This document shows positions 6,796 to 38,372 of a stretch of DNA of 64,000 nt, piece after piece. The notes under the pieces were generated by a model, which worked only from the letters and a program-made list of their open reading frames with translations, was not told the DNA's origin and made no database searches. Position numbers and translations under genes: made by a program. The stretch is from Macrostomum hystrix (taxonomy: Eukaryota > Animalia > Platyhelminthes). Location of the stretch: contig CATNEN010000033.1 in the NCBI GenBank assembly GCA_950097015.1, positions 682,001 through 746,000 of the forward strand. Direction: 5' to 3'. Every line of letters starts with the position of its first letter. The stretch's first letter is position 1.

Positions 6796-6894
6796 CGTGA
6801 GTTCTACACAACCAACAATGTCGTGAGTGCAACAGCAGCGCGTCTAACACTAGCAGAAGTAGAATTAGAATAGGAAGCAGAGTTCTAAATGGAA

Positions 6895-11100: not shown

Positions 11101-11197
11101 AGTCGAAACTCGAAATGAAATCAGAATGTTGTCTAGCAAAGTGCCTTCTGATATTCTTCTTCGCAACTGCGGCATTGCAGACAGGGCAGTCGTCCAT
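8137..11197 (-). CDS. Three-exon 948-aa zinc-finger / tyrosine-recombinase-like protein (exons 11197-10576, 10473-9650, 9537-8137)
   Basis: Intron 10474-10575 (GTAAGT...AAACAG) and intron 9538-9649 (GTGAGC...GTACAG) join three ORFs in frame: 622+824+1401=2847 nt. Exon 3 has YR-like motifs NRLR (R), EVAHKK (K), GDGRR (xxxR) and YDTSRNCVVNAY (Y nine residues after the H/W position). Confidence 0.72.
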
Positions 11198-11756: not shown

Positions 11757-11834
11757 GTAGTGCCGACTGGGATTCGAACCCGAGCCACTGCTACTAAAAA
11801 TGAATGCTTTAGACCTGCATGCCAGATCACTTGC
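11757..11834 (-). pseudogene. tRNA-derived sequence (A-box/B-box-like), copy 1
   Basis: Minus strand reads TGGCATGCAGGTCTAAAGC...GGGTTCGAATCCCAG; acceptor and anticodon stems pair poorly. Confidence 0.45.
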
Positions 11835-12321: not shown

Positions 12322-12399
12322 GTAGTGCCGACTGGGATTCGAACCCGAGCCACTGCTACTAAAAATGAATGCTTTAGACCTGCATGCCAGATCACTTGC
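12322..12399 (-). pseudogene. tRNA-derived sequence (A-box/B-box-like), copy 2
   Basis: Duplicate of 11757-11834 within the 565-bp repeat. Confidence 0.45.
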
Positions 12400-13460: not shown

Positions 13461-14236
13461 TTTGTACATCTACTCCGCTTAATCACAATGCGATTGAAGC
13501 AGCAGCAGAAACAATCCAATCGGATCACTCGCCAGTACCATCGCCATCAATGCCAATGTTGCAAATTGAGCCAATCGGATCACCAGCGATGCCTATGTTG
13601 CCGATTCCAACTGTCGAGGTGCCGTATTTCGTTCCGGTGCCGCTACCTGTTTTTATTCCTGTCTGTGCGCCAAGAGTAACAACAGCGACAGTTGGTGTCA
13701 GTGCACAAAACGGTGTGACCGATGTTTCCATCGAAGCCAATGTCAGCACGCAGTCAGTGTGTATTGGTACATCATCCGGTCACGGTGATGACATTGAAAT
13801 GGCGCAGATTCTGCTCGACTTGATGCAACCTGCCGCTATGCAATTTCTGTCTACCAATACGGATTGTGTTGCTGCTGCTGCTGGATCGGATTTCGCTGCC
13901 CATTCCGAAGCAAGTCACATCGATGATATGTTTGATGTCGCAATGGAGATCATCATTGCTGATGTCAACAACGATTCTGATGAACAGCTATCTGATGTGA
14001 CAGTGCCGCAAGGAGATGCCGATGCCGCAGCAAAATTGGTTCTGACCGCCGACCTTGACGACGATGTCGCAATGTCAATAAGTGATGTGCAGTCATCGCA
14101 ATCGACTATACCTGCGACTGATGCTTTGCATGCATCTAGACGCTCGTATTGTATATGCACACACAATATATTGACTACGACAGTGTCAAGACACGGCCGA
14201 TTGATCAAGACGCGACAATGTCTGTGCGGTAATTGA
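13461..14236 (+). pseudogene. 5'-truncated copy of the 502-aa ZnF gene (C-terminal ~258 codons)
   Basis: Near-identical to the reverse complement of 4057-4832; homology starts abruptly at 13461. Confidence 0.85.
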
Positions 14237-14303
14237 TTTCATTCAATTCAATTGGCTCGGCGTGCAACTCAGATTGGGCTGCTTTGTCTGTCTACTGGCT
14301 GAT

Positions 14304-14334
<31 letters not shown>

Positions 14335-15020
14335 ATAATCGACTCACTCACTTATAATAAATTCAGACTGAACTTGATTTAATCGATTGACTTAATATAC
14401 GTTGATATAAGAATAAACTAAAAAATATAAACTTTTACGCGATTTGATTCTAAGCGATTTGATTCCACTACTGTCTATTCTTATTACATCAATTTTAGTT
14501 TTAAGTCTACTTCATTATTCTCAGGTTTTGCGCAATATAAATACAAACATAATATCTCAGACTGATCGATTACGATTACGTCGGTCTTGTAATAAGTCTC
14601 AACGCCAATGTAAACCGCATAACCGCCAGTCAGTTCAGTTCATATTATTTTAATGATAGAATAAACAAGATAAGAAGTTGTGTACTATTAACAATTAAAC
14701 AAATTACAAACACTAAATTATTTTTGTTGATTATTTATTTATATTTTGAAACGGGTGACCGGGTGCAGAGCAATGTGACGGTTCGTGGTTCACATACTGC
14801 GACATGTCACATAGCCAGCAGATATCTTAGCAGCTTCCGTTGAAGGACGCGAAAATACATTATACTGTTCAACAAGTATGTGACATGTCGCAGTATGTGA
14901 ACCACTGAACCGTCACACCGAATCACTATACACTACAATACCATAGCAGTCCGGTATGTTTATATTTTGAAACGCGGGGATGTCCGGGTGCAGAGCAGGG
15001 CTGGCTAATGCTCACATTAT

Positions 15021-15092
15021 CATCGGGCCGTACGTTAGCCAGATGAAATCTTTCAGAAAAAAACTGAAATCTGGCTAACGTACGGCCCGATG
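15021..15092. repeat. Hairpin/mini-MITE with 24-bp perfect inverted repeats
   Basis: CATCGGGCCGTACGTTAGCCAGAT (15021-15044) and its reverse complement (15069-15092). Confidence 0.85.
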
Positions 15093-15995
15093 GTAACGAT
15101 GGCTAATGATACTGTCTTCCACAAGAGCCTTCTTACCTTTTTACCACTGGCACAATATGCACAGATCTCAAGTAGTCAACGATCATAGTCGTTTTGACTT
15201 AAGAATACGTATGTACTTTCGCGAAAAAGTTTTTGGCAGTGCGCAAATACTAATTATAGATGAAATGTCTGGCTATATTCGCGAAAATACCATAGATATG
15301 GCCACGCTACTTAAAGAACTTTTGCAAAAATACTGCATACAATATGAATTATATGCAGCCGTTTTTTGTGTCTACGGCCAAAAACATCTGACTGTATTTT
15401 CGAAAGAAAAATTTGGATGCGAAGAACATAAAAAATAGCGAAAAATCGAGCTGTACCAAGCAGACATGTCTTTGGTAAAATACGCACAATTTAATGCACT
15501 ACATACCTATAGTCTGCACGTTTTAAAAGTTCATCTTGTAACATCTTATATCTAGCGATACGAAAGTGTATAATAATTTATTCGTCGTTTGTACTTTACT
15601 TTTTTAAACTTATCCAACTAACTTATATGGCTGAATAATGTACAATAATGTACAATAATGTACAAGGAATAATGCACCTCGAAAATTCGTTTCTTTTTGC
15701 TTGTCAGTTAGTGAGTTCTTATTGTCGCACAAATGTTAATAATTGACGTAATAAAATAACAGAACGATTCATAACACGTATTGACGAGATTAGCATGAAT
15801 AATTTAATCATTCAATCATTTAATCAGTTTTATTGTTTTGTTGTATTTATGTATCCGTTTCAGTATCAGTATCAGAGATGTATGACCAATCAGTATTGAC
15901 AGTAAGATAACAAAGGAGGTAAAGTTATCAAAGAGAAACGATTGAATGTCTCAGATCGGCTGGTGTTGTTGGTGTTGAACCAGGTTCTCTGGTTC

Positions 15996-16378
15996 TCATA
16001 GGACACCCGGCTGCGGGATGAAAGATGGGTTTTAGGTTTCATTTATTTTGTTAGGTTTCCTTTAGTAGCTTAGATGTTACAATGCAGATGTGTTAATAAA
16101 TATTCAAATGAAAGGAATCAAAATCTACTACTCACATATGGATCCAGCCCTGCCGCTATACGACGGGCCCGGGCCATGCGTAACATGGCCGCCCGGACCC
16201 GCCGTATAGCGGCTGTCATATTTTCTTCAGCCCGGCGCCGTTCCGGCGTCCAGGCTTCCGCCGCCGCTACCTCCATTGCCACCTCCATGGTTGATCTCAT
16301 TGCGTCTTCTAACTCGGCGGCGGTTGACGCCAGTACGTAGTGCCGGAACGCCGCCGGGAATAATGAGAAAGTAGACAT
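15996..16378 (-). CDS. Two-exon 85-aa paralogue of the 1955-2335 gene (exons 16378-16136, 16010-15996)
   Basis: Same donor and acceptor as the 1955 copy; ORF intact. Confidence 0.55.
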
Positions 16379-16619
16379 AGCTGCTGTTGTTGTGCTGTTG
16401 TTGCTGCTTTGCTTGCGAAGTTTGGTTGTGGGCTGATTTCTTGGCCGATAAAAAATTTCTTGTTCTTAATACCCTGGCTGGCCTGTATTCATTGGATTTG
16501 TCTGTGGACTGACTAATCTGTGTTCGAAAAAATATACTCTATGTGGGCTTTGATTAAAGTTTAGAATTTTTTTAGACAAAACTATTTTTTGCTTTACTTG
16601 ATTTACTAACTGACTGAAC

Positions 16620-17000
16620 ATGTCGTTAATTGCCGATCAGATGCAGTTAGTACAAATGTATCTTCACCCGCACATATTTCAACTCTTTCTCAGCTGTCGC
16701 ATAGATTGCATTGGCCGGTTCATAGCGCATCGAGGGTGCTTCGAGCAGCTACCTAGTTTGCAGTGCGGTGTTCCAAATGCTGAGTATAGCGCTAATGAGT
16801 TATGCTTATTATTACGGCGCACTCAAGAATGGCTGCAACAGCACCGGTCAGCAGAAGACTATATGGCTGTCTTGTTCGTGACTGGTATAAGAGAGGATGA
16901 AGCACAAGACATCATCGAAGTGCTAGAGCTTTTTGAGGACGCCCAAGCTGAACTCCAGCTCATCATACATGGAGTTCGCTACTGGTACATCGAACAATGA
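16620..17000 (+). CDS. 126-aa orphan protein (second copy)
   Basis: Intact paralogue of 1286-1666. Confidence 0.7.
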   Translation: MSLIADQMQLVQMYLHPHIFQLFLSCRIDCIGRFIAHRGCFEQLPSLQCGVPNAEYSANELCLLLRRTQEWLQQHRSAEDYMAVLFVTGIREDEAQDIIEVLELFEDAQAELQLIIHGVRYWYIEQ

Positions 17001-17513
17001 ATGCTGTAAAATACAGAATTTATACAGAATTTTATGTATTATAGTTTACACGTTTATTTTTGCTCTCACGACTTTGCAAATCAGACTAATTGTAGAATAG
17101 CACGATTATTTGCTCAATCAATGAAATTCTACATATATTTATACTTTATATATATTTATTGGTGAAATTTAATAATAACAGTATTAATAATAACCGATTG
17201 ACTAGCTGCACACATCTGTGTTCGCGTATTAATATTTTATTACTGACTGATCTCATCAGTCATCTGATTATGATTAATGGTGAACGCGACAATATATTGT
17301 CAATAGAGACGGCAAACTGTCTTATGCTTTGAATATTACCACGTAGGTGAACGAGAGCTAGTGTATGTAAAAGTAGTTTAAAACATTTGCAGGCAGCATG
17401 AACTGTCAACTTTGAATACTTAGATGTGTTAATCAAATACCTACTTTTAATTATATTATTCAGTTAATTAATTTCATTATAACTAATGGCAACAGTGCTT
17501 AACAAAAGAATTG

Positions 17514-17966
17514 CTACATGTCATTCAAATCTGGGTTATTAGCAGCACGATTGGCATCGCCGCGCTCTCTTTCAGTGCCAGTGCCGCCATTGTTGATGCT
17601 GCTGCTACTACTTACAATTGGTGACTGTATATCGGTCACTTGCGCATGCTGCGGCAGTTGCAATTGGCCGGCTAAATCACGTGTCGGATTGGCGTTCACA
17701 ATAGAAAATCTCTGATTGTAAATGCGCACGACACCTGGACGATGCAATACGTACTGAACACGTTGACGTGAAGGCAGAATAGCAAAATCGGAGTCTGAAC
17801 TACTATCCGAGCTGTGCCTTCGTCGACGTCGCTCAGTGCCAATCACGACATCCGTGCTGCTACTGACGGTAGGGCACGAGATCGGTTTGTCGTTGCCAGA
17901 GTTGTGATCCTCTCTGTCGATATCTCGTTGATCTCCGCCATTGTGCCGCCCACCCAGGGATGACAT
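17514..17966 (-). CDS. 150-aa orphan protein (second copy of 314-772)
   Basis: Intact paralogue. Confidence 0.55.
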   Translation of the reverse strand: MSSLGGRHNGGDQRDIDREDHNSGNDKPISCPTVSSSTDVVIGTERRRRRHSSDSSSDSDFAILPSRQRVQYVLHRPGVVRIYNQRFSIVNANPTRDLAGQLQLPQHAQVTDIQSPIVSSSSSINNGGTGTERERGDANRAANNPDLNDM

Positions 17967-18200
17967 GTTGTAGTTTTTTTATTTGAAACAATAATTAAGA
18001 ATCTAAAATGTGTAAATAAGTTACGCCACTTACCTTAGTAAAGTAACCAACTAAAAACCCTATTTCTAGTCTATGGTAACAAGATTGCTGATAATCTTAT
18101 GTGATTGGGAATATGTAATCAATGCAGTTGAAACTTTGGACAATTAATGAAGTAAATAAAACAAGTTCAACATTTTAAATACTGCCCCCATTGTCTCGCC

Positions 18201-18854
18201 ATGCCTACATCAACATCATCATCAGGGCCAACTCTAAACGATGCGGAAAAATCCAACTGTCACGACGATGACGTTGAGCTGAATGAAGAGCCAGGCTATG
18301 ATGACTACGGGTATGATGAAACATACAATTCAACATACAGTTTTGTATTCGGCCTGGCAGACGACCATTTGTTATACGCCGTAGCTGAAGAGGTCGAAGC
18401 GGCGATGGCAGCCAATTGCTTAGACTCAGCTGACGACGAGCTTTTATATGCCGCAGCTGAAGAGGCGGAGGCGTCAGCAGCAGCGGCAGCGATGGCAGCC
18501 AGTAGCTGCTTATTTGACCCAGCTGATGACGAGCTTTTGTATGCCGCAGCTGAAGAGGCGGAGGCGTCAGCAGCAGCGGCAGCGATGGCAGCCAGTAGCT
18601 GCTTGTTTGACCCAGCTGATGACGAGCTTTTGTATGCAGCAGCTGAAGAGGCGGAGGCGTCAGCAGCAGCGGCAGCGATGGCAGCCAGTAGCTGTTTATT
18701 TGACCCAGCTGATGACGAGCTTTTGTATGCCGCAGCTGAAGAGGCGGAGGCGTCAGCAGCAGCGGCAGCGATGGCAGCCAGTAGCTGTTTATTTGACCCA
18801 GCTGACGACTGCCTATTGTATGCCGCAGCTGAAGAGGCGGAGGCATACGTTTGA
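18201..18854 (+). CDS. 217-aa acidic protein with 31-aa repeats (DPADDELLYAAAEEAEASAAAAAMAASSCLF; 93-bp units, ~4.7 copies)
   Basis: ATG-initiated ORF, repeat period a multiple of 3; its 5' end is duplicated at 78-1 on the minus strand. Confidence 0.55.
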   Translation: MPTSTSSSGPTLNDAEKSNCHDDDVELNEEPGYDDYGYDETYNSTYSFVFGLADDHLLYAVAEEVEAAMAANCLDSADDELLYAAAEEAEASAAAAAMAASSCLFDPADDELLYAAAEEAEASAAAAAMAASSCLFDPADDELLYAAAEEAEASAAAAAMAASSCLFDPADDELLYAAAEEAEASAAAAAMAASSCLFDPADDCLLYAAAEEAEAYV

Positions 18855-19689
18855 AATTATATTATAAAATAATGCAGAAACTATGATTCATTACAGTTAT
18901 TTTATAAATAAAGCCTCTGATTATCATAACGATTTGATATACATATTGGTGTTGTTTTGTTAGTGATTGAAAATACACTAATCTTTTCGTGAAAATACCA
19001 TCACCAACAATCATAAGCACAAACGTAAGCATTATTGTTTGTATTTTTTTGTTTGTAAACGTTCATATTATTTTAATACTCAAAGCAATTTCGCATAAAT
19101 ACAGCAGTTTGTCCCTATACTTTCCTAATTTTCAGATTTTTTCCCAGCTTTTTTCGACTCATTATTCGGTCTTTTCGGAGAGCCATTTGGGCCTCATTGA
19201 AACGCAAATATAGCAATTTTCGTATAGCGCTTATATTTCAGTGCGCAGCAGTTCAGTTCTGCTCCATTTAGCTTACTATTTAGATTTATTTATTCGGAAG
19301 TCAGATTAAGACAAAAAATGAACATAAAGGCCTTCCTAAAATCACTTTCATCTTCTCTCGTTTATAACAACGTAAACAGTGTATTTAAATTCATGCGTAT
19401 TTAAATTCACGCGCTAGCTCTGCAGCTATTTTTAGAACTGGGAAGACCACGCTTCCTCTATGGCTTTGCTCGCAAGCACTCTTTTTCTCTCATTATTGAT
19501 ATTGCATTAGAGCAGCAGCAGTGTACAGTATACTGAATGTATTGTTTCGTTCGAGATCGATTGACTGACTGATTGACACTGATTGACACAGACTCTATGT
19601 CTTATGACATTCAATAATTTGATTTAATTTTGACTGGCGGCGGCAGCGACGACAAGCAAAAAACACGGAAAGGCAATTAGAATATAATT

Positions 19690-20760: not shown

Positions 20761-20825
20761 TGCAAATAAGAAAAAGGCTCTGTATTTAAAATAGGCCGTG
20801 TAAGTCTCTGCTCATAAATATGAAT

Positions 20826-21080: not shown

Positions 21081-21642
21081 TCTATATATATATAAAAGTG
21101 AAAACTCTGTCTGTCTGTCTGTCTGTGTGTGTGCAACCTTTTGTCTTTATAGACGCCGAAACCGCTCAACCAAATCGCACCAAACTTTGCACATACCTAA
21201 AACCACCTACGCTGAGTGCAATAGGCAACTCAAATTCCCGAAAAATCATTTCCTTCCTGCTCAAAAGTGCAAAAAACTGCTCAAAAATCGTCAAAAAATC
21301 ACTCAATTCGACATATCGTCGCCCCACTTTGTCAGATTTTCTCCAAATTTGATCCACTTACACTTTACATGTTTTCCAACAATGCTGTCAATTTTGAACA
21401 TCTCTACTCAATCCAGAGCAAAGCTGCATCATCTCAAAGTGAGTCACTTTTTGTTTTCCGAGGACAGCCACCCCAACTCCCCTCCGCCACTCTGCGGGCC
21501 AAATTTTATTACAGCCACCCCCTCCCTTCCCCGGGCGCCGAAGCCCCAGACTGTACATTGTATTTCAAGCCGTGAATGTACACAGCCCAAACCCCTAGAC
21601 TGTCTACTGGCCCCCAAGCAGCACTGAGACTGAGTGCGGTGA

Positions 21643-22692
21643 GTGCGGTGGCGTCCCAGTGCGCAGGGCTCTCCGGTCGATATTTCTCTCCAGCCAGCCT
21701 GGGATAGAAGAAAGAGAGAGGCTGGCGATCAACTGATGGGTGGTGTCACTCTGCTGCTGTCTGGAGACTTTAGACAGACGCTGCCTGTGATTCCGCATGG
21801 CACTCCTGCTGATGAGATTAATGCTTGCCTAAAATCATCTCACCTGTGGCCATCGGTTGTGAAGTTGCACCTACGAACAAACATGAGAGCTACAATTCAA
21901 GGAGACGAAACAGCTCATGAGTTCTCTGCCAATCTATTGCGAATCGGCAATGGTCTGCTGGAGATTAGCACCGAGGATGGGCAGTCATCGATCGCTACAA
22001 TCGGAACCATTGTGCAGTCAGTGCAGGAGCTCAAGGCAAAAGTTTACCCGAACCTGATGGTTCGATATGCTGACGTTGACTGGCTGTCAGAGAGGGCAAT
22101 TCTGTGTCCTAGAAATGATGCCGCCAACGAAATTAACTACCAACTGCTTCAGGAGTTGCCAGGTGCAGTTTTCACCTACAAGTCAATTGATACAACGTTG
22201 ACTGATGACACCGCTGTGGAGTATCCTGTTGAGTTTCTGAACTCTCTAGATCCTCCTGGAACTCCATCGCACAACTTGCAGCTGAAAGTTGGGGCACCAA
22301 TTATGCTCCTCCGCAACCTGAATGCGCCAAGGCTGTGTAACGGCACCAGACTGATAGTCAGGCGGCTCTTCCCACACGTGATTGAGGCCACGATAATGAC
22401 TGGATCTGGCAGAGGAGAGTCTGTGTTCGTTCCCCGGATTCCAATTATCCCCACGGACCTGCCATTTCAGTTCAAGCGACTGCAGTTCCCTGTGAGAGTG
22501 TGCTTTGCGATGACTATTAACAAGGCTCAGGGACAGTCGCTGAAGGTGGCTGGCATCAACCTGGAGACTCCTTGCTTCTCGCATGGGCAGCTTTATGTCG
22601 CCTGCTCCCGTGTTGGAAATCCAGCTGGCCTATTCATTTTCGCACCAAGGGGAAGAACGAAGAATGTGGTGTATCCCCAGGCCTTGAGGTGA
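21643..22692 (+). CDS. Helitron PIF1-like helicase, C-terminal fragment (no Rep domain)
   Basis: Motifs GDFRQTLPV, LKVGAPIMLLRNL..RLCNGTRL, FAMTINKAQGQSL, FSHGQLYVACSRV. Confidence 0.9.
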   Translation: MRWRPSAQGSPVDISLQPAWDRRKREAGDQLMGGVTLLLSGDFRQTLPVIPHGTPADEINACLKSSHLWPSVVKLHLRTNMRATIQGDETAHEFSANLLRIGNGLLEISTEDGQSSIATIGTIVQSVQELKAKVYPNLMVRYADVDWLSERAILCPRNDAANEINYQLLQELPGAVFTYKSIDTTLTDDTAVEYPVEFLNSLDPPGTPSHNLQLKVGAPIMLLRNLNAPRLCNGTRLIVRRLFPHVIEATIMTGSGRGESVFVPRIPIIPTDLPFQFKRLQFPVRVCFAMTINKAQGQSLKVAGINLETPCFSHGQLYVACSRVGNPAGLFIFAPRGRTKNVVYPQALR

Positions 22693-22844
22693 CTCGCAAG
22701 CAATTAATAGAAAAGTAGTCACGAATTGACCTTGACCTGTCTAACTCTGAACTCTGAAACAGTTTAATTTTGTTTCTTTGACATTGTTATTGTTATGCCA
22801 TGGCTATTTTCCTTATGTATACGCGTGCACATGCATACTGTATA

Positions 22845-23122
22845 CAGAGGCAGATTTAGGGGGGGGGCGGGGGGGCAGTTGCCCCCCTAAATTTTAATCA
22901 TGGGAATAAGATGCCCCCACCAGGGGCGCCAGTCGCAGCACTGGCGCTCCTTTTCTGCCGCTGGCGCCCCTTTTTCAGCCGCTGGCTCCCGTTTTTCAGC
23001 CGCTGGCGCCCTTTCTTGGCTCCTGGCGCCCTTTTTCGGCCGCTGGCACCCCCTCTGTGATTCTCATGGCGCTCCCCTGACAGACCGCCCCAAAACAAAA
23101 TTCCTGGATCTGCCACCGACTG
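22845..23122. mobile_element. MITE nested in the Helitron 3' region
   Basis: Imperfect TIRs CAGAGGCAGATTTAGG / CCTGGATCTGCCACCGACTG, flanked by TA(TA); GC-rich internal repeats. Confidence 0.6.
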
Positions 23123-24090
23123 TATAGAGGAGTGGCTAAGAGACATGTTTCTAAAGAAGTAATCAAGAGGGGGCTGTTTGGACAAACTTTTCACTTATTT
23201 TTTACTTAAAACGCCCTTAAACAAACTCTTCACTTTTCATTAATGCAGTAAATAAATAAATGGTGACCTTCACTATAAAGTTAATACAGAGACGTGAATT
23301 GCTTACTGCTTTGCTTTAAATTTCTGCCCTAAAAACAACGGGCAAAAAAAGCTAGTTTGTATATATAATAGGCCCTGCAATTAGTGTTTGTATACAATAA
23401 CAATCGGTCTGTAAATATAATAGTTAATAGCGCATGCAGTTCTCTATAATTATAATATATTAGTAATCTCAGTAAGGGTAATGCAGTTCTGAGCTGCGTA
23501 GAAATATTAGATCCTAATGCTCGCTGTTGACATAATAATAGATCCTGTGGCTCTCTGTCGGTATAATATCTGTAGCCAGTTTTAACTTTGTCCAAGCAAA
23601 TAGAAGGCTGACTGTTGATTCGAATTGTGGATGGATCTCTGAATTATATTTGACTGTAAGCTGCAGTTCGATCGAGCAGTTGGGCCGGGCTAAAACTAAA
23701 AGACTGCTACTTTGCTTGCCACCCTTTCTTTAAAACTTCGAAAGCGAAAGGGGGCGGCCCTGTCTCTAAATTCATAGTCTATGGTAAAAGGGTGTGGAAG
23801 GCCACTGCTCTGCCTTGAAAAAGAGAAGCAGTGTGTCTGCTTTAACCAATCGATAATGTCACCCCTGTGGCCATAGACTAAAGACGATCGAAGTTGTCTC
23901 TCTTTCCATCTGCAGGTCTGTCTGGCTGGCTCGGCACTGCTTTTGAGGGAGGAAGATCGAGTTGGAGGGGGTGGGTGTGCTGTTCACTGGAAAATCGAAT
24001 GTCTGAGCTGATTGTACTACATTGCAAATGAAAAATTATGTTTTTAAAATTTATAAATGATTCAGAGGCTTATAATTTTTACAGCCGGGA

Positions 24091-24384: not shown

Positions 24385-27263
24385 ATGACAGACAACGAGT
24401 CGTGCTGAATCTTCTGTGGCGACGGCAGACCGCAGACGCACCCGAAACGCCACTTCCTGAGGAGGCACGCGGAGGAGGCTGTGCGCCAATTCCGACTCGA
24501 GGATGCCCCAGTCAAGGTGCGGCCGTCCGAGGCATCTTGGGCAGCGGCGTCAGCCAAGCAGCGTGCCCAGATGGTCTGGCTCTGCCTGACGTGCAGCACC
24601 CACACGCGCAGCTCAGCCAACACTGAGCATGTACTCGCGTGCCCAGCCTGCGGCAAGGTGCTGCGTAGGACAGCAAGGCAGCACAGGTGTCCAGCAGTGC
24701 CAGCTATTGTCGCTACCGTTGCTGTGGAACACCAGCAGCCACAGCCTCCGCAGCAGATGCCACCACCGCCTCCGCAGCAGATGCCACCACCGCCTCCGCA
24801 GCAGATGCCACCACCGCCTCCGCAGCAGCCTTCAGAGGCAGAACCAGCTGAATACGAGGCTGGGTCTCTGTTGGCCGAGCTCTACAGCATCGCCGCGCCG
24901 TCCGTTGACGGTCGACAGTCAGCGGCCAGTACTCGGCTGTCGTCAGCCAGCCGTCCAGCCGTCCGGCGACGCCTATTTGACCCGACTGCGCCGCTGCTGC
25001 TGATGTCCTCACAGGAGGCCCCCGTAGTCGCTGACGATGACGATGATGGAGACTACGATGTCGGCTTGCAGGAGCTGCTGCCCGGAACCAGCATCAGAAT
25101 GCGGACGCTGCCGACGGTCCAGACGGTGGCAGCAGAGTCTTCCTCTTCGGCTGCCTGTCTGCAGTTGGCGGTGCAGGCCACCAAGGCAGCACTTTGTCGT
25201 CCCAGCACGTCATCGGCTGTGCTGTCAGCTGCACAGAGGCCGCTAGTGAAGCTGGCAGCTACCCCGCCGAGGCAGCGTCGAGCAGCTGCAGCAAAGTGGA
25301 CTGCTGCAAAGAGAAGGCTGGCTAATGCCGAATTCGACCGGCTTCGATTGTCCATCTTCGGAGCAGAACTGCAGCAGGAAGCTTCGACAGCCGATCAGAA
25401 GCAGCAGCAACAGCGTCGCGGTCCGCGCTGTCGACACTTTTGCACGTCGCCACCTGCGAAGCCCGTGCCACCAGAGCTGCTGCAGCCGTTGGGTGACCGG
25501 CCCAGCATCTCCGCAACGGTGGAACGCCTGCGGGAGCTATGGTGGAGGGACCTATCGCGGGCCAGGATTGCGGCCAACTTGTGCCACCAGCAGCGTTGGC
25601 GCGACATCAGCAGGTCCGTGAGCTCGACGCTTCTACGCACCTAGCAGCGAGCGGGCATATCGCTTGCAGACCTGCTGCTTCAGCCGGACAGGGTGCAGGA
25701 CTGCTTCAGCGCTGAAACAGTCGGTGATGCCATGCAGCTGGCCCAGTCGACTGCTGCGCGCAAGTGCCAGGAGCTTGTCAGCATCTGCCGCTGCATGGAG
25801 GGCTGGCTGCGCGTGAGGGGCCTGCGAGGCGCCAATGCCATCATGGCCGCCGTTGGCTTGCGCGAAGCCGAGCTGTTCTGCAGCATCGACTCACCCTCGC
25901 CTGACACCGAGCGCCCTGCTATTGAGGACGTCGACTCTGTCGGCAGTGGCGTCTGCTGGAGACTGCAGTTGGCGCAGAAGGCCAACAACCCGCTGGCGGC
26001 TGAGCAGGCTCTCATCGCCCGCCATAGCAGCGTGGTGCAGCAGGCTCGCGGCGAGTTCGGCAACGTCCGCGCCATCCAGCAGGTGAGCTAGCTGCACAGC
26101 AGCTGCATTAATGACAGTTAGTTCTATTTGGTTTCGTGCTGCTATCTACTATAAGTAAACGCAACCACATTTATACTATGCAGGCAGTCTACAAGCTTGG
26201 CCACAACGAGCGGCAGGTGGCCTTCATGGACACCTACGTCAACGTGGACGAGGTCGATGCCGTTTTCGCCCGCCGTGATCGTTTTTTTGCCATGCTACAA
26301 AGGCACAGCTGGACTTCGCTGCCCGTAGACGGCGAGTGGTACATGCAGGCAGCCGTTGCAGATAGCATCACCATCAGGGAGGATGCGGTAGATGATGGTG
26401 CCTTCAGTCGCCGGATGGTTTGTCTGCGGAGGATTGTGCAGGAAATGCTGTTTTTCTGCAGCATTGAGCAGCCCCTGCGACTCCTGCCTTGGATCTACAT
26501 CCGCCGGCGACACTTGGTTGATCGGTCGGTTCGTCGGAACGCGTCGGCCGACCAAAAACAGCTGTTCCGCCAACACACGCAAAGTGCAGATGGGGAGAGC
26601 GCGCCGTCCGCTGCCGATCTGGCTGGGCACTCACACCTCGTCCTGCCGCTGCGTGAAGTGCCGCACAAGGTCGGACACTCCGGCGACCCAGCCAGGATGG
26701 TGCTGCCGGATCTATTCTGTGAGGCCTTGCTGCGCCTGCACGACGAATACATCGTGCCGTCGCTTGCTGCTCGCGGCATCGAGCAACCGGAGTCGCCGAC
26801 GGTCTTCATAGATGTGTTCGGCGGCGTGTACAGCCAGTCGGCAATGAGCCGCATGATCAGCGCAGGCGGGCAGCGAGTACTGGGTCGGCACTATGTGGCC
26901 ACGCACTGGCGTCGCACCCTCTGTGCTGTAGTGCTCATGATGGAGCCGGAACAGCTAGATGTCTTCGCCAGAGCGCACGGCACATCTGCAGCTGTCATCC
27001 GGTTCAACTATGGTCACAACGCGCAGATGGCCACGGAGATGGGCGCGGTGATTCGCAGCCGCGACATTGTCCGCCGATTTGTGGTGCCATCAGATGACGA
27101 GCAGATGCCACCGATAGTTAGGCCGCCGACCCAGGGACTCATCAGCAGCCTGGCTGGTGGAAGTGGTGAGGTGGCGGCGAGCACCCAACGAGCCGACGCA
27201 GTCCTGCACGATAGACCGGTGGCCGGAAAGCGACGGCGGCTGCACTCAGTGGCGGAACATTAA
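24385..27263 (+). pseudogene. Element B ZnF / tyrosine-recombinase-like gene (exons 24385-26082, 26184-27263) with two in-frame stops
   Basis: ATG 24385 reads MTDNESC*IFC..KRHFLRRH (TGA 24406); TAG at 25642 is in the same frame; phase-0 intron 26083-26183 (GTGAGC...ATGCAG). Exon 2 has QPLR, EVPHK, ATHWRR and AHGTSAAVIRFNY, which align with the 8137-9537 exon. Confidence 0.72.
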
Positions 27264-27514: not shown

Positions 27515-27552
27515 AGCGTATAAAGCGCGCACATGTGCGCGCTTTATACGCT
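27515..27552. repeat. 38-bp perfect palindrome
   Basis: AGCGTATAAAGCGCGCACA|TGTGCGCGCTTTATACGCT. Confidence 0.95.
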
Positions 27553-27754: not shown

Positions 27755-27871
27755 GTACAGTTCATAGTGCGCGCACATTACTTAAAAAATATATAAGGAT
27801 CGTCGTTCTAAAATTAGAGCAGACATGCCTTATATATTTTTTAGGGAATGTGCGCGCACTACAGACTGTAC
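27755..27871. repeat. 117-bp imperfect hairpin
   Basis: Outer arms 27755-27779 / 27847-27871 (22/25 match); inner arms 27784-27798 / 27828-27842 (15/15). Confidence 0.9.
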
Positions 27872-29189: not shown

Positions 29190-30272
29190 TTATTTAGCCC
29201 AATAAGGACTAATATTTTGTGCACTGACACCAACTGTCACTGTTGTTACTCTTGGCGCACAGACAGGAATAAAAACAGGTAGCGGCACCGGAACGAAATA
29301 CGGCACCTCGACAGTTGGAATCGGCAACATAGGCATCGCTGGTGATCCGATTGGCTCAATTTGCAACATTGGCATTGATGGCGATGGTACTGGCGAGTGA
29401 TCCGATTGGATTGTTTCTGCTGCTGCTTCAATCGCATTGTGATTAAGCGGAGTAGATGTACAAATTGGATGCCGGACTGATCCAATTGACACGCTGTCCG
29501 CTTGGCTCACATGTTCAGCAGGCTCGTCATAAATTGTTGCATAGATGATGCCTGATTCATCTGCGCTATCTTCTATGATGATAGTTTCTGCTGGCTGCTC
29601 TGCTGCTGGCTGCTCTGCTGATGGCTGCTCTGCTACTGGCTGCTCTGCTACTGGCTGCTCTACTACTGGCTGCTCTGCTACTGGCTGCTCTGCTACTGGC
29701 TGCTCTGCTACTGGCTGCTCTGCTACTGGCTGCTCTGCTACAGGCTGCTCTGCTACTGGCTGCTCTGCTACTGGCTGCTCTGCTACTGGCTGCTCTGCTG
29801 CTGGCAGTCGACGGGCAATGTAGCGTTCGTGCATGTAGTCGACAATCTCGCCGACCACAGCTGGTAGTGGATCCAGTTGTTCAAGCTGGACCACTTCGCC
29901 CATTGCCGCTGCTCCCGCCACTGCCACTGGCTGAGCTGGTTGGCCACCGACGCGACGCTGCGGATTCCGCTTACATCTATATTGATGATGCAACATGTTA
30001 GATGTTATTTTGTTGCAATGCAGACACGCTAGCACACGTCCACCGGCAGCGACATCTACACCAGCCCGCTGTAGTTGCAGCATCTTCCAGACGGCACTTC
30101 CACGCTCCTTAACAAACGCGAATAGCGATGGCCTTTGACCAACAGGTAGGACTGTCCAGTCAAACTCGGCATGGACAGCTTTATGCGCCTCTATAAAATG
30201 TCTTCGCATCATATTGGTGCTGATTTGCTGGCCGCAGAAATGGCAGAAGCGGAGTCCGTTATTGTTTTCCAT
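29190..30272 (-). pseudogene. 3'-truncated copy of the ZnF/AEQP gene (14 pentapeptide repeats)
   Basis: Matches 4580-5565; the last few codons come from unrelated flank. Confidence 0.8.
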
Positions 30273-30374
30273 TGCAGCTTGTATAGTAGATCGCTGGCTA
30301 GCTTGCTGAATAATCGACAGAGTGATCGTTCTGGCTGACTTTTAATTATCGATTTGCGTGCGCGCGCGCATATA

Positions 30375-31980
30375 TACCTTTTTACGTTCTATTTGATAAA
30401 AACTGCAACCAATTTGGCCACGGCTCAGCCTGACGCAGCCGCAGCAATTTTCCATAGACAGCCGCCGCTAGCAGCAACCAATTTGGTACGAGTAAAAACT
30501 GCGAGCTATTTTGCCAGCTTGAAGATATCATCTTATCATTCTGATCATCACTCTGATGGCGAATCGTGGGCCGTACCAAAAGATAAGTCAGCTGGATCGA
30601 GAGCGAATCGTGAGAGCGTACAGGAATGGCGACGACTGGAGAGAGCTTGGCAGAATGATGGGGATGAAGAAACCGACAGTGAGGAACATCGTGATCACGT
30701 ATGAACGAACTGGTAGAGTTGGCACTCTGCCAAAAGGAGGAGTGAAGAGGATGGCGCTGACGGAGGCTATGGTGGACACCATTGTTCAATTCGTTGAAGG
30801 TCAACCTACTGCGACGCTGCAACAAATGAGAGAGCACCTGCTACACCAACACAATGACGTTGCCAACGTGAGTCTGACCACTATCAGTCGTGCTCTGGAT
30901 GGTCGCCTCATCACCCTGAAGTTGCTGCGCCAGGTACCTGTGAACTGGAACATGCCTGTTACAAAGGAGGCGCGAAGGATGCACGTCGAATGGATGCTGG
31001 ACGAGGGAAGCCAGGTGAACACAATTTTCATGGACGAGTTTGGGGTGAATATCTGGACGGCGAGGACTCAAGGCCGCTCAGCGAAGGGGCTCCCAGCTGT
31101 GACTGTCGTCAGTGGACAGCGTGGGCAGAATCTCACCATCTGCCTGGCCATCTCGCAACTCGGCCTCGTTCACAGCACTCTCGTTGAAGGAGGCTTTAAG
31201 AACGAGCACTTCGTGGAATTCCTCTCTGAGATCGATTTTCTGATGGAAGAGTAGTTTGTGCTACTGTCCGATGGGGCACGCGCTCACCTAGGTGTCCCTG
31301 GGATGTCTGAAGGTCATGCTCACCGATTCCTGCCTCCATACTCGCCGTTCATCAACCCGGCGGAGTACGCAGGCTCAGCGCTGAAGGCCAAGCTGAAAAG
31401 GCAACTGCAATCACCTGCCATTCAGCGCGAGGTGGCAGATACTGGACTGGCTGCTGCAGCAGGTGCGACACTGCATCAGCACAGGATGCGCATTCTTAAG
31501 AGAGAAGTGCAGCAAGCACTGAACTGCATCACGCCTCTTAAGTGCCTGCGCTGGATCAACCACTCCCAGACGTACTTCAATCGGTGCTTGAATGCTGAGG
31601 ACATATTGTTCTGACTTCTGACTGAGGACATATTGTTATCATTCTTAATGTTATGAATTCGTGTTCTGACTTCTGACTGAGGACATACTGTTATCATTCT
31701 TAATGTTATGAATTCGTGTTCTGACTTCTGACTGAGGACATGCTGTTATCATTCTTTATCGTTATTGTTATGCTATAGCTCCCTATTTCGCTACTGCTGT
31801 TGACAGGGCAGGTCAAATACAGCAGTGTGCTGCTATCTTCAAGCTGGCAAAATAGCTCGCAGTTTTTACCAAATTGGTTGCTGCTAGCGGCGGCTGTCTA
31901 TGGAAAATTGATGCGGCTGCGTCAGGCTGAGCCGTGGCCAAATTGGTTGCAATTTTTATCAAATAGAACGTAAAAAGGTA
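30375..31980 (+). mobile_element. Tc1/IS630-superfamily DNA transposon, ~165-bp TIRs, TA TSD
   Basis: Ends TACCTTTTTACG...CGTAAAAAGGTA. Empty site GCGCATATATTTACC is seen at ~5661 in copy 1. Confidence 0.92.
30556..31614 (+). pseudogene. IS630/Tc1-like transposase with one in-frame stop (TAG 31252)
   Basis: HTH N-terminus, IFMDE, LLSDGARAH, FLPPYSPFINPAE; the two ORFs are in the same frame. Confidence 0.88.
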
Positions 31981-32079
31981 TATTTACCAAGCACTGCTCA
32001 TATCCTGTACAGAGCAGCAGTCAGACACATAGACATAGACAGACATCGTCAACTGGGTCTAAGCTATTTCCAAATATCA

Positions 32080-32765
32080 GTATTTTCGCGAAAATACTGA
32101 TATGCTCTAAACAAAGGTAAGAGCAGTATTTTTGCAAAAGTTCTTGAAGGTGTGTGCATTACTACATCTTATGGCATTTTCGCGAAAATACTGATATGCT
32201 ATTAAACAAAGGTAGTTAGCGGTATTTTTGCAAAAGTTCTTGAAGGTGTGTGCATGGCTACATCTTATGGCATTTTCGCAAAAATACTGATATGCTATTA
32301 AACAAAGGTAGTTGGCGGTATTTTTGCAAAAATTTTTGAAGTTGTGTGCATGGCTACATCTTATGGTATTTTCGCGAAAATACTGATATGCTATTAAACA
32401 AAGGTAGTTAGCGGTATTTTTGCAAAAGTTCTTGAAGGTGTGTGCATGGCTACATCTTATGGCATTTTCGCAAAAATACTGATATGCTATTAAACAAAGG
32501 TAGTTGGCGGTATTTTTGCAAAAATTTTTGAAGTTGTGTGCATGGCTACATCTTATGGTATTTTCGCGAAAATACTGATATGCTATTAAACAAAGGTAGT
32601 TAGCGGTATTTTTGCAAAAGTTCTTGAAGTAGTGTGCATGGCTACATCTTATGGTATTTTCGCGAAAATACTGATATGCTATTAAACAAAGGTAGTTGGC
32701 GGTATTTTTGCGAAAATTCTTAATGTAGTGTGCATGGCTACATCTTATGGTATTATCGCGAATGC
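32080..32765. repeat. 95-bp palindrome-containing array (~7 units)
   Basis: Expanded equivalent of 5765-6070. Confidence 0.9.
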
Positions 32766-33061
32766 AGATACGCGGCGGTTGAAGACAATAAGAAGACAAT
32801 ATTTTTGCGAAAGTACTTTAAGTATTCATGATGACTATATCTAATGGTAATCAATAACCAAATATGACTTGACTTCATTATATTTTATTATTATTCACGC
32901 CGCGAATACAATTTGCAACTGGTTCACTCATGTATATTTGCTTGAGCGAATTAATTGGGTTAAATAAATAGCTGGCATTAATTAAACGACGAACAGGAAA
33001 CTACAATTAGCTGTATTAAGTCTAACTAAAACTAGTGCTGCTACTGCTGCTGCTGCTGCTG

Positions 33062-33481
33062 CTACTGCTCAATTCGATATCGGCGGCTCCGGAGCAACTC
33101 TCGCAGTCTAGCCCTTTGCTGTACGCCGCGCCAGTAGTCCAGGCCGTGTAGAATGTGCTGCAGCTCCAAACATGTGTCCTCCAGCAGGCCTAGCAGCTCG
33201 GCCAAGTCGAAGGCCTCGTTCTCTGTTAGGCAGGTCAGCTCCAGGATGGTCTCGTAGCCCGCAGCTGTCTTGTGTTGTAGCAGCCAGTCCAGGAGGCTCT
33301 TCATCAGGGTGTGCAGCTGGGTGACGTTCAGCTCAGCAGTCGGGCAGTGGCGCTGCAGGCAGGTTAGCTGCTCCAATCGTCCTCGGTACGCCAGGAACGG
33401 GGCCAGACAGGCGATGTCGCATCTGGCCAGGAGTGCCACGGTGGCCGGCGAGCCGAACAGCGCCACAGGATGCGCATTCAT
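33062..33481 (-). CDS. 139-aa orphan protein (second copy)
   Basis: Intact; few substitutions relative to 6376-6795. Confidence 0.7.
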   Translation of the reverse strand: MNAHPVALFGSPATVALLARCDIACLAPFLAYRGRLEQLTCLQRHCPTAELNVTQLHTLMKSLLDWLLQHKTAAGYETILELTCLTENEAFDLAELLGLLEDTCLELQHILHGLDYWRGVQQRARLRELLRSRRYRIEQ

Positions 33482-33589
33482 CGTGAGTTCTACGCAACCA
33501 ACAATGTCGTGAGTGCAACAGCAGCGCGTCTAACACTAGCAGAAGTAGAATTAGAATAAGAAGCAGAGTTCTAAATGGAAAGTAAATAC

Positions 33590-34740
33590 AGTATTTTCGC
33601 GAAGGTAAGGGCAGTATTTTTGCAAAAGTAGCGTGACTACATCTTATGGTATTTTCGCAAATGCAGATACGTATTCTCAGACAAAGTGACTTTTTACCAT
33701 AGACAAATTTAGTGCATTTCTGTAAATTGCCAAAACTCACGAATGAGTTTTTTTTCGCGAAAAGACAATATGTACTATATTGAATACTTGTAAATGAAAA
33801 ATAGTGTCTGTTTTTGCGAAAATACTGCTATGCTATTAAACAAAGGTAGTTGGCAGTATTTTTGCAAAAGTTCTTAAAGTAGTTTAAAGTACTGTACATG
33901 ACTACATCTTATGGTATTTTCGCGAAAATACTGCTATGCTAATAAACAAAGGTAGTTGGCGGTATTTTTGCAAAAGTTCTTAAAGTAGTGTGCATGACTA
34001 CATCTTATGGTATTTTCGCGAAAATACTGCAATGCTATTAAACAAAGGTAGTTGGCGGTATTTTGCAAAAGTTCTTAAAGTAGTGTGCATGACTACATCT
34101 TATGGTATTTTCGCGAAAATACTGCAATGCTATTAAACAAAGGTAGTTGGCGGTATTTTAGCAAAAGTAGTGTGCATGGCTACATCTTATGGTATTTTCG
34201 CGAATGCAGATACGTATTCTCAGACAAATTGACTTGTACTTTTTTACCATCGACAAATTTAGTATATTTCTGCTAATTGCCAAGAGTCATGTATTTTTTT
34301 CGCGAAAAGACTATAACGTTACTATGATGAATATACTTTTGCAAAAATGCAATGTTCTCAAAACGAAGGTAAGAGCAGTATTTTTGCAAAACGTCTTAAA
34401 GTTGTGTGCATGGATACATCTTATGGCATTTTCGCGAAAATACTGATATGCTATTAAACAAAGGTAGTTAGCGGCATTTTTGCAAAAGTTCTTGAAGGTG
34501 TGTGCATGGCTACATCTTATGGCATTTTCGCAAAAATACTGATATGCTTTAAACAAAGGTAGTTAGCGGTATTTTTGCAAAAGTTCTTGAAGTAGTGTGC
34601 ATGGCTACATCTTATGGTATTTTCGCGAATGCAGATACGTATTCTCAGACAAAGTGACTTGTACTTTTTACCATCGACAAATTTAGTATATTTCTGCTAA
34701 TTGTCAATAATCACGAATGATTTTTTTCGTGAAAATACAA
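33590..34740. repeat. 95-bp palindrome-containing arrays with duplicated linker segments
   Basis: Equivalent of 6895-7830, rearranged. Confidence 0.85.
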
Positions 34741-35043
34741 TATATACTGTGTATCTGCGGCTTTTAAGAAAACGAGAATAGTTTAATCTTAGTTTAATCA
34801 GATGATAATCAAATGATTTCATTTGTTAATTAATTTATTTACTAAAGAAAAAATCACAGTGTTGACAATCATTAGCATCTTAATAATATATAAGAGAGCA
34901 ACAAACAGAACATATGAGATTCTCGGTTGTAAAGAGACGGGTATTAGTGGGGGTATCACAATTGACACAATTGATAATAGTTTGGCAAATCAGACAATCT
35001 GCACATATTAAGTCAGGTGACACGACTGGGACAATATGAGCAT

Positions 35044-36616
35044 TCAGATGTCCAGTCTAGTTCTCGAACTGATCAGGCGCCCAGATCGCGTCCTGTATGC
35101 CGTTCGACGAACTATGAGTAGCTCAGAATCCGAGCTGGTCTCATTGTCATTGCTGACGTGCTGTTGTTCATTATCATCACCTTCGTCGTCGATATCGTCG
35201 TGAACGTTGCCTTGTCTTCCTGATGCTCCATGCATCGGCGATTGACTAAGACTGCGTCGTCTAGACGATGCAGACGAAATAGGCGATGGTGTTGCTGAAT
35301 CGATGGCCGGCTTTGTCGACTCGGTGACGTTGTTGTACATCTGGGGCTAATTGTAGCGGGTCGCATTGTCGACATCCGAGGTCGCTTCTTGTCGGTGGAT
35401 GATGACGCCGCTTTGCCAATGGACGACCGTCGAGTGCGTCGCTTGCGTATGCGTTGACAATGTGGCATCACAATGTCATCAGCAGGTAGAGGAGATGCAG
35501 CCGATGAATTGGTTGCGTCCAGATCAACGCTACAGGCAGAGCGACGACGCTTCGTGTCGTTTTCGGCTGTTGGATGTCGTTGATGTCGACGATCAAGTGG
35601 CCGATTGTGACAGAATGTCTCGAAGCATCCTCTGACGTCGTCGGCGACCATCAGATTGGCCTGCTGTTTGGCCAGGCGTCCATACGCATTGACGACACAG
35701 TTGCGCGATGTGTCGTACAGAGGCGCCAGCTGGTCTAGCTTGTCGGGATGCGCGTGCACATATGCCGACAGTACATTTCGACGCCCATCGCCCATGCGAT
35801 AGGGCCGATCGATGACCAACTCGGCGCCCTGCTTGACAAGCGTGCTGAAACTTGTCGAGTCACGCTGTTTGCCACGATGCGTACGAAACAGCAGACATTT
35901 GCCAGGCCTGACCCGGATGTTGCACTCGGCGAAGTATGGCAATAGATAGTTGTCGATCCATTGCAGTAGACATTCGCCGACTTTGCGTGGCGCAATCTAG
36001 CTTGCACCTTTTCCACGACCGCCCTTTTTGTGTGCCACTTCGGTAGGCGGCAGGACGGTGACAATGGTGGAGGACGTTGATACACCACTATTGAGTGCAG
36101 CATCCAAATAGCAACGCCGGATCGCGACCCAAGGACGTAGTCGGTTGGCATGGACAATGGCTGCACAGAAGAATGCCAGTTCACGAGTGATCGGCATAAT
36201 AAATGCATTCCATTTTCCGACAGTGTTGGCCATTCGACGTGCACATTGCCCAATGCGACCCCAGTAGCCCTTCACGGGTAGATGAGACCACGAATGTTTG
36301 GCGACCATATCAATCAGGCAGTCTAGCCGGTTGTGAATGATGCGCCATTCGTCAGCGGTCAGGAACTTATCCGTGTAGGACAGCTGGCGTTCGTCATCGC
36401 GCAGGTGATAAATATTCTCTTGCCGCTGACGAATCAATCGAATGCAAGCCTGTACATTTTAAAGGGTTATTAAAGAGAAATGCATGCAGTAGCTTCTACA
36501 ATTGTTCATGACATATATTAACTAACATGGTATACAACATGAGACACAACAGTACTGCTCACCATGATTGATTCGATGCGGCTAGTCAACAGACCAGATA
36601 CTGCAGTCTGATGATA
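35044..36616 (-). pseudogene. Disrupted copy of the ZnF-YR gene (end of exon 2, intron 2, exon 3)
   Basis: TGG>TAG at 35997 (ASW>AS*), 4-bp deletion frameshift near 35330, and upstream exons deleted at 36616. Confidence 0.85.
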
Positions 36617-38372
36617 TTTTTAGATTTTAAGAAATATATATTTTTAGAAATACACTAGGGAGATCAAAAAAAGGTCATTCAGCCTTTTGCACGCTTTTAC
36701 ACGCATGCCTACTGTTAGTAGTAGGTATAGCACTAGCGCTATATCGAAGATTTGGCCCGGACTTTTTTGCTCGGTTATTTTTAGCCTGACTTTTTTTCAA
36801 CCAGGAACCCGGAATTTTTTTCACATGTTCGGACTTTTCTGCTCGGTTATTTTTAGCCAGACTTTTTTGCACCATGAGCCCGGACATTTTTACCACTTTT
36901 CTCGGTGTGGCGTACTGACCTTGAGCATGGATTTCTCTTTGTACTCGAAATGTACTCGATTTCCCCTTTGAGGTGAAATCCAAGCCACCCGTGTAAAAAA
37001 GTCCCGGCTTTGGAAAAAAAAGAGTCCAATGCATACGCGCTCAAACTGTTATCTTATCTTTGCTGATCGCAAGATTGAAAGCTCAGTCACCGTCTTGAGC
37101 TCAAAGCCAACTGATATAGTGTTATCAAAAACTCAAACACGAAAAAGAAAGACTGAGAGAAGGAAAGCTGGAGGCAAGCATCTATGTGCCTGCGATTTCG
37201 ATGTCCTCGCAGTTCAGAGAGCAAAATCTGCTGCGTGTGCGTACAGCCAACGTAAAATTCACAATTCCGAATTCGAAAACTGAGCCACTTTATATGCCAA
37301 TTTGATTGCCCAATAATGGAAATGTTTTCTGCAGCAACAGCACAATCCTGGCTTTAAGTATGGCCTTGCTTCTGTATAGTTTTCGGCTAGCATGCCGCCA
37401 GTAGTTAGCTGAACAAACAGTCTAGCAGACAAGCGAGATACTGTCAAGCGAGAACATTATCAGTCAGTACATAACAGATTTGGCAGTACATATCGTTGCA
37501 TTCGATTCTGCTCGCGCTTAAATCAGCATTCCGCGTCTACCGATAAAAAGTGTGCTCCAGAGTTTCATTTAACTTCCGCGGCTGTTTGGAGTTTTTTTAC
37601 CAGAATTTCAATTATATATCCATTTATTTTTTCGCATCCTGTGTGGTTGATATAACAAACTGGTAGAACTTAAAATAGAAAAATTTCAGTCAGCATTCCA
37701 TTGGTTTCAGATGGTCTTTTAATGAATTAAAAAATTAATAAAGTAAAATTTGACTGAACAGATGCTCTCTCAGGTCTACAACTCCAACAGATGTACTACG
37801 TGTATTTATACGGGGACTTCCTGTTATTAAAACCTGCACCTGCAGATTGAGTCATCTTTCGATCATCCGATTGAAGATGTCGCCTACTATACTTTCCAGG
37901 CTGATTCTATACGGCGTAATGGTGGCCACATTAAAGAAGGCCACAAGTTTTTTGCGTCTGTATTCGCCATATGCTTTCTGTTGAAGGAAGCCGACTCAAA
38001 CTATCCGAAGGTGGCGTCTTTTGGGTAAATGCGCACGGCAATGCCCTGCTTAGTGCTATTGTACGCAAGGGCTTAATCGAAAAAAACTGGGCCCTAATAT
38101 GCGAACATAGCAGCTTCACATGATCATTTACTTCCTAGCTTATGATCACATTTTCAGAAGTGTCCAGTTACCGCAGGTTCTTACGGACTGCGCCTCTAAT
38201 TCTGTTGCCTTTTTCTTTGCTCCTATCGACAACGAAGAATATGACTTGCTGGAACGTGACTTGCTTGCTAGAGCCAAAGAATCAGACATCTGTTACGATG
38301 TTAAAGACAATTTTTGTCTATATGTTATCTATTTTTAATATAAAAAATTAGTCATTTCATACACAAGATCTA

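Follow-up and report, generated by a model that had tools for sequence, protein, structure and literature searches.

A probable tyrosine recombinase gene of Crypton type, in the broad sense, and its very distant cousin in a flatworm genome

Introduction

DNA transposons driven by tyrosine recombinases (YR) are thinly described in animals. In the broad sense, the Cryptons are eukaryotic DNA transposons that carry a YR, and the name does not stand for one lineage (PMC13465315). Excision as a circle, followed by reinsertion, has been proposed as their way of moving (PMC3212892). Among them, CryptonV receives a mention in one account (PMC8869645) and a table entry in another (PMC5753468). Another described group is that of the nimaviral YRs, which combine C2H2 and SAM-like domains, keep five of the seven key residues and are in some cases encoded by several exons; YR-like proteins related to them occur outside viruses (PMC10871703). 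In coral polintoviruses, YRs are reported to be rare (PMC11131425).

The tolerance of the YR active site has been described for the recombinase Cre, in which the Tyr and the Lys are strictly needed and both Arg nearly so, while the three remaining positions are tolerant; the His II of the H-x-x-R motif, with a conservation of only 87%, can be lost in this enzyme (PMC2943603). Variability at His II is also reported for subgroups of prokaryotic YRs (PMC8138268).

The window analysed here, a stretch of 64,000 nucleotides from Macrostomum hystrix, holds two genes, A and B, for which an earlier note, made from the letters of the DNA, had proposed a common YR identity. On the evidence presented below, B is read as a variant, probable YR of Crypton-type elements in the broad sense.

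Gene structure of B and its homology to A

The features of gene B and the position of gene A are the following.

24385..27263, plus strand: gene B, two exons, GC-rich, ATG at 24385, stop at 27261-27263, 925 codons
24385..26082, plus strand: exon 1 of B (codons 1-566), carrying both premature stops
24385..24702, plus strand: N-terminal double zinc-binding module, also present in A and in ORF2 of the A unit
24406-24408, plus strand: premature stop at codon 8, within the first zinc finger
24712..25494, plus strand: low-complexity linker without homology to A
24739-24828: 24-bp tandem repeat inside the linker
25522..25884, plus strand: middle helical domain, homologous to exon 2 of A
25642-25644, plus strand: premature stop at codon 420, within the middle helical domain
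26083..26183, plus strand: predicted spliceosomal intron of B, 101 nt, GT..AG, phase 0, from sequence and homology
26184..27263, plus strand: exon 2 of B (codons 567-925), stop-free, YR-like catalytic domain
8137..11197, minus strand: gene A, three exons (11197-10576, 10473-9650 and 9537-8137), 948 aa

The intron of B is predicted because it is required for joining two frames, each of which aligns to A. With the stops at codons 8 and 420 restored, the reading frame comes to 925 codons, in agreement with the length of about 925 aa given previously. Gene A has no internal stop and two predicted GT..AG introns, the second of which aligns 11 codons upstream of the single intron of B, so that A has one intron more and the positions differ, as had been noted. 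The zinc module of B consists of a C2H2-like finger, a helical spacer with a Trp and a C2HC-like finger, and its matches to zinc-finger and ribbon families in Pfam were all below threshold. From its position and pattern, the middle helical domain would correspond to the core-binding (SAM-like) domain of YRs; the family libraries returned no match for it.

The earlier note had quoted six pairs of motifs from A and B, all of which were found in the sequence, and had held that the two proteins align only in these motifs. This second statement proved too narrow: the homology spans three domains, with 24% identity over 471 aa between the spliced proteins (E 2e-26) and 25% identity over 287 aa when exon 2 of B was compared with A (E 3e-24). 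None of 500 shuffles reached the score of the zinc module at the N terminus (z=12.3), of the helical domain in the middle (z=8.9) or of the core domain (z=40.5), and the same was true for the zinc module of B against that of ORF2 of the A unit (z=15.4; 0/500). By contrast with these, the linker is unrelated between the two proteins (z=0.8, with 92 of 500 shuffles scoring as high). Given these E values, and three domains never equalled by 500 shuffles, the similarity between A and B is significant in a formal alignment. A and B are true homologues that diverged deeply, B being a very distant cousin of the intact A gene located 13 kb away.

The A unit

Gene A belongs to a larger unit, whose pieces in the window are listed below.

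about 1-12965: piece 1 of the A unit
4057..5565 (5565-4057), minus strand: ORF2, 502 aa, with the zinc module and without a recombinase domain
13461..19100, plus strand: piece of a third copy, an inverted 3' half, right end approximate
29215..36688, minus strand: second copy, deleted, with a Tc1 insertion inside
30372-31983: Tc1-like element with inverted ends of at least 117 bp, inside the second copy
35112-36616: YR gene of the second copy, 5'-truncated and with a stop

The unit measures at least 13 kb and has gene A at one end, together with ORF2, small orphan ORFs and palindrome arrays. Two of the orphan ORFs are paralogous (126 and 139 aa, 40% identity), and the arrays are made of 95/96-bp repeats containing a palindrome of 18-30 bp. 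The nearby copies of A are three pieces of one rearranged cluster, and B lies between the inverted 3' half and the deleted second copy. The possibility that B is itself a member of the A unit was considered and rejected, as B shows neither DNA similarity to the unit nor its palindrome motif, with no match between 19 and 29 kb. Of the two loci, the multi-gene A unit looks the more interesting.

The catalytic domain as a probable tyrosine recombinase

It is very probable that the catalytic domain of B and A has the YR fold, a reading proposed earlier and here judged likely from ESM Atlas features and from a XerD profile with controls. In the ESM Atlas, exon 2 of B was nearest to phage-integrase clusters (0.97), and its ten best family-bearing matches all belonged to one family or clan; for comparison, shuffled proteins attain 0.95 about once in 100. 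Protein A was nearest to unnamed chordate clusters (0.95), together with an integrase cluster that is also near B. A protelomerase reading of B was set aside, since the corresponding Atlas match ranked only 30, at least 15 better rows were integrase clusters, and the 38-bp palindrome described below lies away from any inversion junction.

A XerD-like profile was assembled from XerD and 71 distinct relatives taken from 80 viral loci, giving 72 sequences. By using HHalign, the A/B alignment matched this profile over 110 columns with an E of 0.002 and a probability of only 13%, without gaps between His II and the Tyr. The score of 29.4 exceeded those of all 25 column shuffles, the best of which reached 21.5, and that of the reversed control (15.6). 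Arg I fell outside this match, and the Lys of XerD (K172) was aligned four residues off K728 of B. In hmmsearch with the same profile the matches were not significant, with E 2.7 for B and 0.98 for the exon 2 ORF among 181 targets from the window. When compared with XerD and with phage-borne PF00589 integrases, about 15-19% of some 110 aligned columns are identical. A profile of G-T-S (Thr-type) integrases placed exon 2 of B first of the 181 targets with E 0.00065, in what is a circular test, and the signal was lost after removal of the selected motif (13.4, against a shuffled maximum of 20.0).

Searches of B and A against Pfam, PHROGs, NCBIfam and PDB sequences returned no YR-family match. 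Two AlphaFold2 models, calculated from two-sequence alignments, reached a mean pLDDT of 38 and 40, which is too low for a test of the fold; searches with these models gave best Z values of 4.8 and 5.4, and YRs were absent among the matches listed. The helices and the hairpin of these low-confidence models follow the YR order.

Beyond the family libraries, homologues were sought in several collections. A word-index protein search returned none for exon 2 of B (near lengths) or for the A/B alignment (near and longer lengths), and no relative appeared in metagenome contigs, viral contigs or prokaryote genomes. Among phages and plasmids searched by tblastn, the best phage match (E 4) lay in an unrelated ORF of 631 aa. 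Such searches need shared short words, so that their empty results do not prove absence. Among the publications listed by literature searches, none dealt with the A/B family.

The active site

The candidate catalytic residues of B are placed as follows.

26478, plus strand: R665, Arg I candidate
26667, plus strand: K728, candidate for the catalytic Lys
26904-26915, plus strand: H807, R809 and R810
26982, plus strand: T833, at the His/Trp III position
27009, plus strand: Y842, candidate for the catalytic Tyr

The earlier note had claimed that conservation is concentrated on the predicted catalytic residues, and this holds only weakly. A and B are identical at the named R, K, R and Y, an agreement expected by chance with a probability of about 0.006 at a background of 27.6%, for residues chosen post hoc. 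The neighbourhoods of the proposed sites, on the other hand, are not significantly enriched: 16 of 45 columns within four residues are conserved, against 58 of 223 elsewhere (Fisher p=0.20). The residues common to A and B are just the four that Cre least tolerates losing (PMC2943603). In the low-confidence model, K728 falls in a predicted beta-hairpin.

The spacing to the Tyr is 32 or 33 residues in both A and B (in B, Y842 is R810+32 or R809+33), and in the XerD-like sequences the distance from Arg II to the Tyr is 32 in 68 of 72 and 33 in the other 4. If B is read in register with XerD, Arg II corresponds to R810 and the canonical H-x-x-R (H807-R810) is present, whereas A has Asp in place of the His. 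The Thr-type profile prefers R809 as Arg II, which makes the His II position a Thr in B and a Gly in A. As judged from the alignments, the catalytic arginine of B would thus be either R809 or R810, its register depending on the profile.

A, B or both depart from the usual residue at three of the seven canonical positions. In the two proteins the His/Trp III position is occupied by Thr, and the third residue after Arg I is a Pro; neither has an acidic residue after Arg I. According to the account of Cre, Thr is not among the active substitutions named for Trp315, Pro at Glu176 leaves very weak activity, and Asp at His289, which is the residue of A in one register, is inactive (PMC2943603). A motif scan of viral contigs returned 44 loci, 43 of them with the motif in frame, and 42 of these 43 match the YR profile; all five Thr-motif viral ORFs that were tested match PF00589. 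Thr at His III is therefore natural in integrases, and the Thr of A and B can be regarded as a variant of the site that does not place them outside the superfamily. As a separate observation, most phage-borne integrases in which His III is replaced by Thr also carry Tyr in the His II position (29 of the 33 with a readable motif), a coupled change in the active site. That the stop-free copies of B are catalytically active appears fairly probable.

Copies without the stops

Eleven public DNA runs matching B were listed, four of which hold at least half of its words; the four, which are the ones used here, consist of contigs from one study under two organism labels. No RNA run was among those listed. 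The search for stop-free copies suggested earlier was successful in these runs: both stop positions are a sense codon in all four, at full depth, and a near-identical stop-free sequence of B is present in each of them, under the two labels. The same runs hold pieces about 86-96% identical to B, so that B can be described as a small family. The contig depth of the runs is no measure of copy number and was not used as such.

Forty of 404 variant rows were listed, as a filtered subset, and 18 of these fall in the coding sequence of B. Nine listed sites are private to the window copy, differing from all four runs, and comprise the two stops, five amino-acid changes and two silent changes. Another nine vary among the runs, with eight silent changes and one amino-acid change. 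The silent fractions (2 of 9 and 8 of 9, respectively) differ with a Fisher p=0.015, a value that refers to the 40 of 404 rows listed. The private stops and the protein-altering private sites, set against the silent variable ones, lead to the conclusion that the window copy of B is likely dead, with the pattern of neutral decay of a probable pseudogene, while the small family looks constrained by selection.

Surroundings of B

The elements found close to B, and one decayed transposase farther away, are listed here.

21093..23355, plus strand: Helitron with Pif1 helicase, hairpin and CTAG end, unrelated to B
27515..27552, no strand: perfect palindrome of 38 bp, the longest in the window, 250 bp past the stop of B, a candidate binding or recombination site
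27755..27871, no strand: imperfect hairpin of 117 bp downstream of B, arms of 44 nt, 89% complementary
39000-39810: decayed mariner transposase

The palindrome and the hairpin beside B share GTGCGCGCAC-like cores, and they parallel the arrays located 3' of A. The long ORFs in the interval from 19.1 to 29.2 kb belong to B, the Helitron helicase and low-complexity frames, and the surroundings of B showed no recognisable reverse transcriptase or capsid gene. Cryptons are characterised by direct repeats of 4-6 bp at their ends, by a lack of terminal inverted repeats and by dispersed copies that end alike, and some CryptonV elements target microsatellites. Long terminal repeats were not found around B; between its guessed outer limits there was no direct repeat of at least 8 bp and no pair resembling terminal inverted repeats, and the data examined contained no element ends, target repeats or independent insertion sites. 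Upstream of B, a 31-bp tandem array is interrupted by the Helitron, whose depth is far above that of B in each of the four runs and which has an apparent nested GC-rich insert at about 22880-23120. A low-complexity unit of about 400 bp occurs in three diverged head-to-tail copies at 19668-20800, between a piece of the A unit and B.

The window as a whole contains the genes CCSAP, FHA-PHD and OSBP, with spliceosomal introns, in addition to Tc1/mariner and Helitron elements, a content that points to an animal host. Rfam returned no match. An inverted pair of 2.1 kb, 99% identical (43983-46078 and 51576-53672), encloses 5.5 kb that include an exon of an oxysterol-binding protein (50392-51069), and is possibly a foldback element or a composite transposon that surrounds host DNA. 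From 63043 to 64000 there are at least 33 copies of a 29-bp minisatellite, which continues beyond the end of the window. A frame of 233 aa at 40234-40935, which has no match in Pfam and lies 13 kb from B, unlinked to it, presumably resembles the tail of a non-LTR reverse transcriptase.

The presence of two subfamilies within 15 kb had been taken to suggest a shared insertion preference. The data do not support this suggestion: the pieces of A form one rearranged cluster, no common target motif was found, and Helitron, Tc1 and mariner elements are located in the same region. In DNA so rich in transposons, A and B can lie close together without a common target site.

Origin, mechanism and meaning

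The reading preferred here, whose chances seem to us about even, is that B is a stop-broken copy whose stop-free relatives encode the YR of a low-copy Crypton-type DNA transposon, of a lineage deeply diverged from that of A. The gene structure, the homology to A in three domains and the two stops private to the window copy have been shown for B. In the mechanism envisaged, the zinc module and the core-binding domain would bind the DNA of the element ends, perhaps the palindromes 3' of the gene; R665, K728, R809 or R810, and Y842 would cut the DNA through a 3'-phosphotyrosine bond and exchange strands. By analogy with the Crypton model, the element might then leave as a circle and reinsert elsewhere (PMC3212892).

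That the B family is mobile rather than domesticated seems reasonably probable. In the opposite case, B would derive from a domesticated host gene family of YR-element origin, with a DNA-binding or genome-rearranging function, and the window would hold a decayed duplicate. Domesticated Crypton genes are well known, but the domesticated DUF3504 genes have lost the Tyr and Arg II, both of which B retains (PMC3212892). The composition of B keeps domestication a live rival, as its GC3 is like that of the host (0.71, with 0.69 in the FHA-PHD gene, against 0.52 in A). The same reading would account for a B that lacks the palindrome arrays of A and detectable termini, and for the near-identical stop-free sequence in four of four runs under two organism labels; it fits less well with several relatives of 86-96% identity in these runs and with a location in transposon-dense DNA between copies of A. 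Overall, domestication is considered unlikely, though to be taken seriously.

Two further explanations concern the recombinase itself, and each is given a small chance, marginally the smaller for a viral origin. According to the latter, A and B would encode the integrases of large DNA viruses that became endogenous, or of virus-like elements, similar to nimaviruses, whose YRs offer the same C2H2 and SAM-like composition, with five of seven key residues and some multi-exon genes (PMC10871703). The A unit, with several orphan ORFs and tandem palindrome arrays, would suit such an origin. These arrays resemble viral homologous regions. Against it, the ORFs scanned included no recognisable capsid, polymerase or other viral gene, no relative appeared in viral contigs, and B is without a comparable gene cluster. 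The other explanation holds that motifs were read into a C-terminal domain that either lies outside the YRs or has a YR-like DNA-binding fold without catalytic activity. The empty searches of the family libraries and PDB sequences are in line with this, as are the lack of significant enrichment around the motifs and the three of seven canonical positions that are atypical in one or both proteins. However, the Atlas features and the XerD profile with its controls indicate a YR, and the spacing from Arg II to the Tyr is canonical, with R, K, R and Y identical at a background of 27%.

A selected pair of intron-bearing genes with about 25% identity was missed by Pfam, PHROGs, NCBIfam and PDB sequences, which suggests that annotation overlooks much of the class; a profile can be started from the proteins A and B. 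Should the stop-free proteins prove active with their Pro, their variable residue at His II and their Thr, they would extend what is known of the YR active site and could become a source of new site-specific recombinases. Since the window copy of B is probably a pseudogene, there is more to be gained from the multi-gene A unit.

Comparison with known systems

Like the Cryptons, B is a eukaryotic, intron-bearing gene for a YR-like protein, and the Crypton trait of a YR gene without a reverse transcriptase is found around it, as is the absence of detectable long terminal repeats. Unlike them, B and A begin with a double zinc module and show Thr in the His/Trp III position, and the sister gene A belongs to a unit of at least 13 kb that holds several genes and palindrome arrays. 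Among the Cryptons, CryptonV (PMC8869645; PMC5753468) may be the closest in kind. CryptonA was rejected, since no DUF3504 was found: exon 2 of B had no Pfam family at E<=1, and A none of such kind. CryptonF was likewise rejected, with no match to GCR1_C in Pfam, and DIRS/Ngaro elements were discarded, as the ORFs near B and those of the A unit included neither RT-RNase H nor gag.

With XerD and the phage integrases of PF00589, B shares the order and spacing of the hairpin, the Arg II helix and the Tyr, and it has the G-T-S...Y-G-H tail in common with the G-T-S phage integrases. In contrast to prokaryotic integrases, B has zinc fingers and an intron and is without an acidic residue after Arg I. 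The captains of Starships resemble A, being described as YRs encoded at one end of larger units that also carry accessory genes and as variable at His II (PMC10104507); A differs in its animal host, in a far smaller unit and in having no DUF3435. For want of a Pfam match to DUF3435, Starship itself was rejected. In an extended reading, A and B would be two ancient lineages of an undescribed class of cargo-carrying, Starship-like YR elements of animals, and this is doubtful when taken in full. It would comprise a unit of 13-14 kb with the recombinase at one end, orphan genes and palindrome arrays, a paralogue of the zinc module that may regulate the recombinase, a non-canonical R-K-R-T-Y active site, and B as a second, possibly domesticated lineage, and the same doubt applies jointly to all of these parts.

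Capsid, packaging ATPase and core genes of polinton-like viruses or nimaviruses were not found by Pfam or PHROGs, and the orphans of the A unit could be divergent viral genes. The locus differs from the nimaviral YRs in that it showed no recognisable nimaviral gene, telomere repeat or rDNA target, and the likeness is one of architecture. In that respect, the nimaviral YRs, described as associated with telomeres or rDNA, and the related YR-like proteins of decapods combine zinc-binding, SAM-like and YR domains with incomplete key residues and in part with several exons, as A and B appear to do. Among the published accounts considered, the nimaviral C2H2/SAM-like YRs are the closest architectural match in print.
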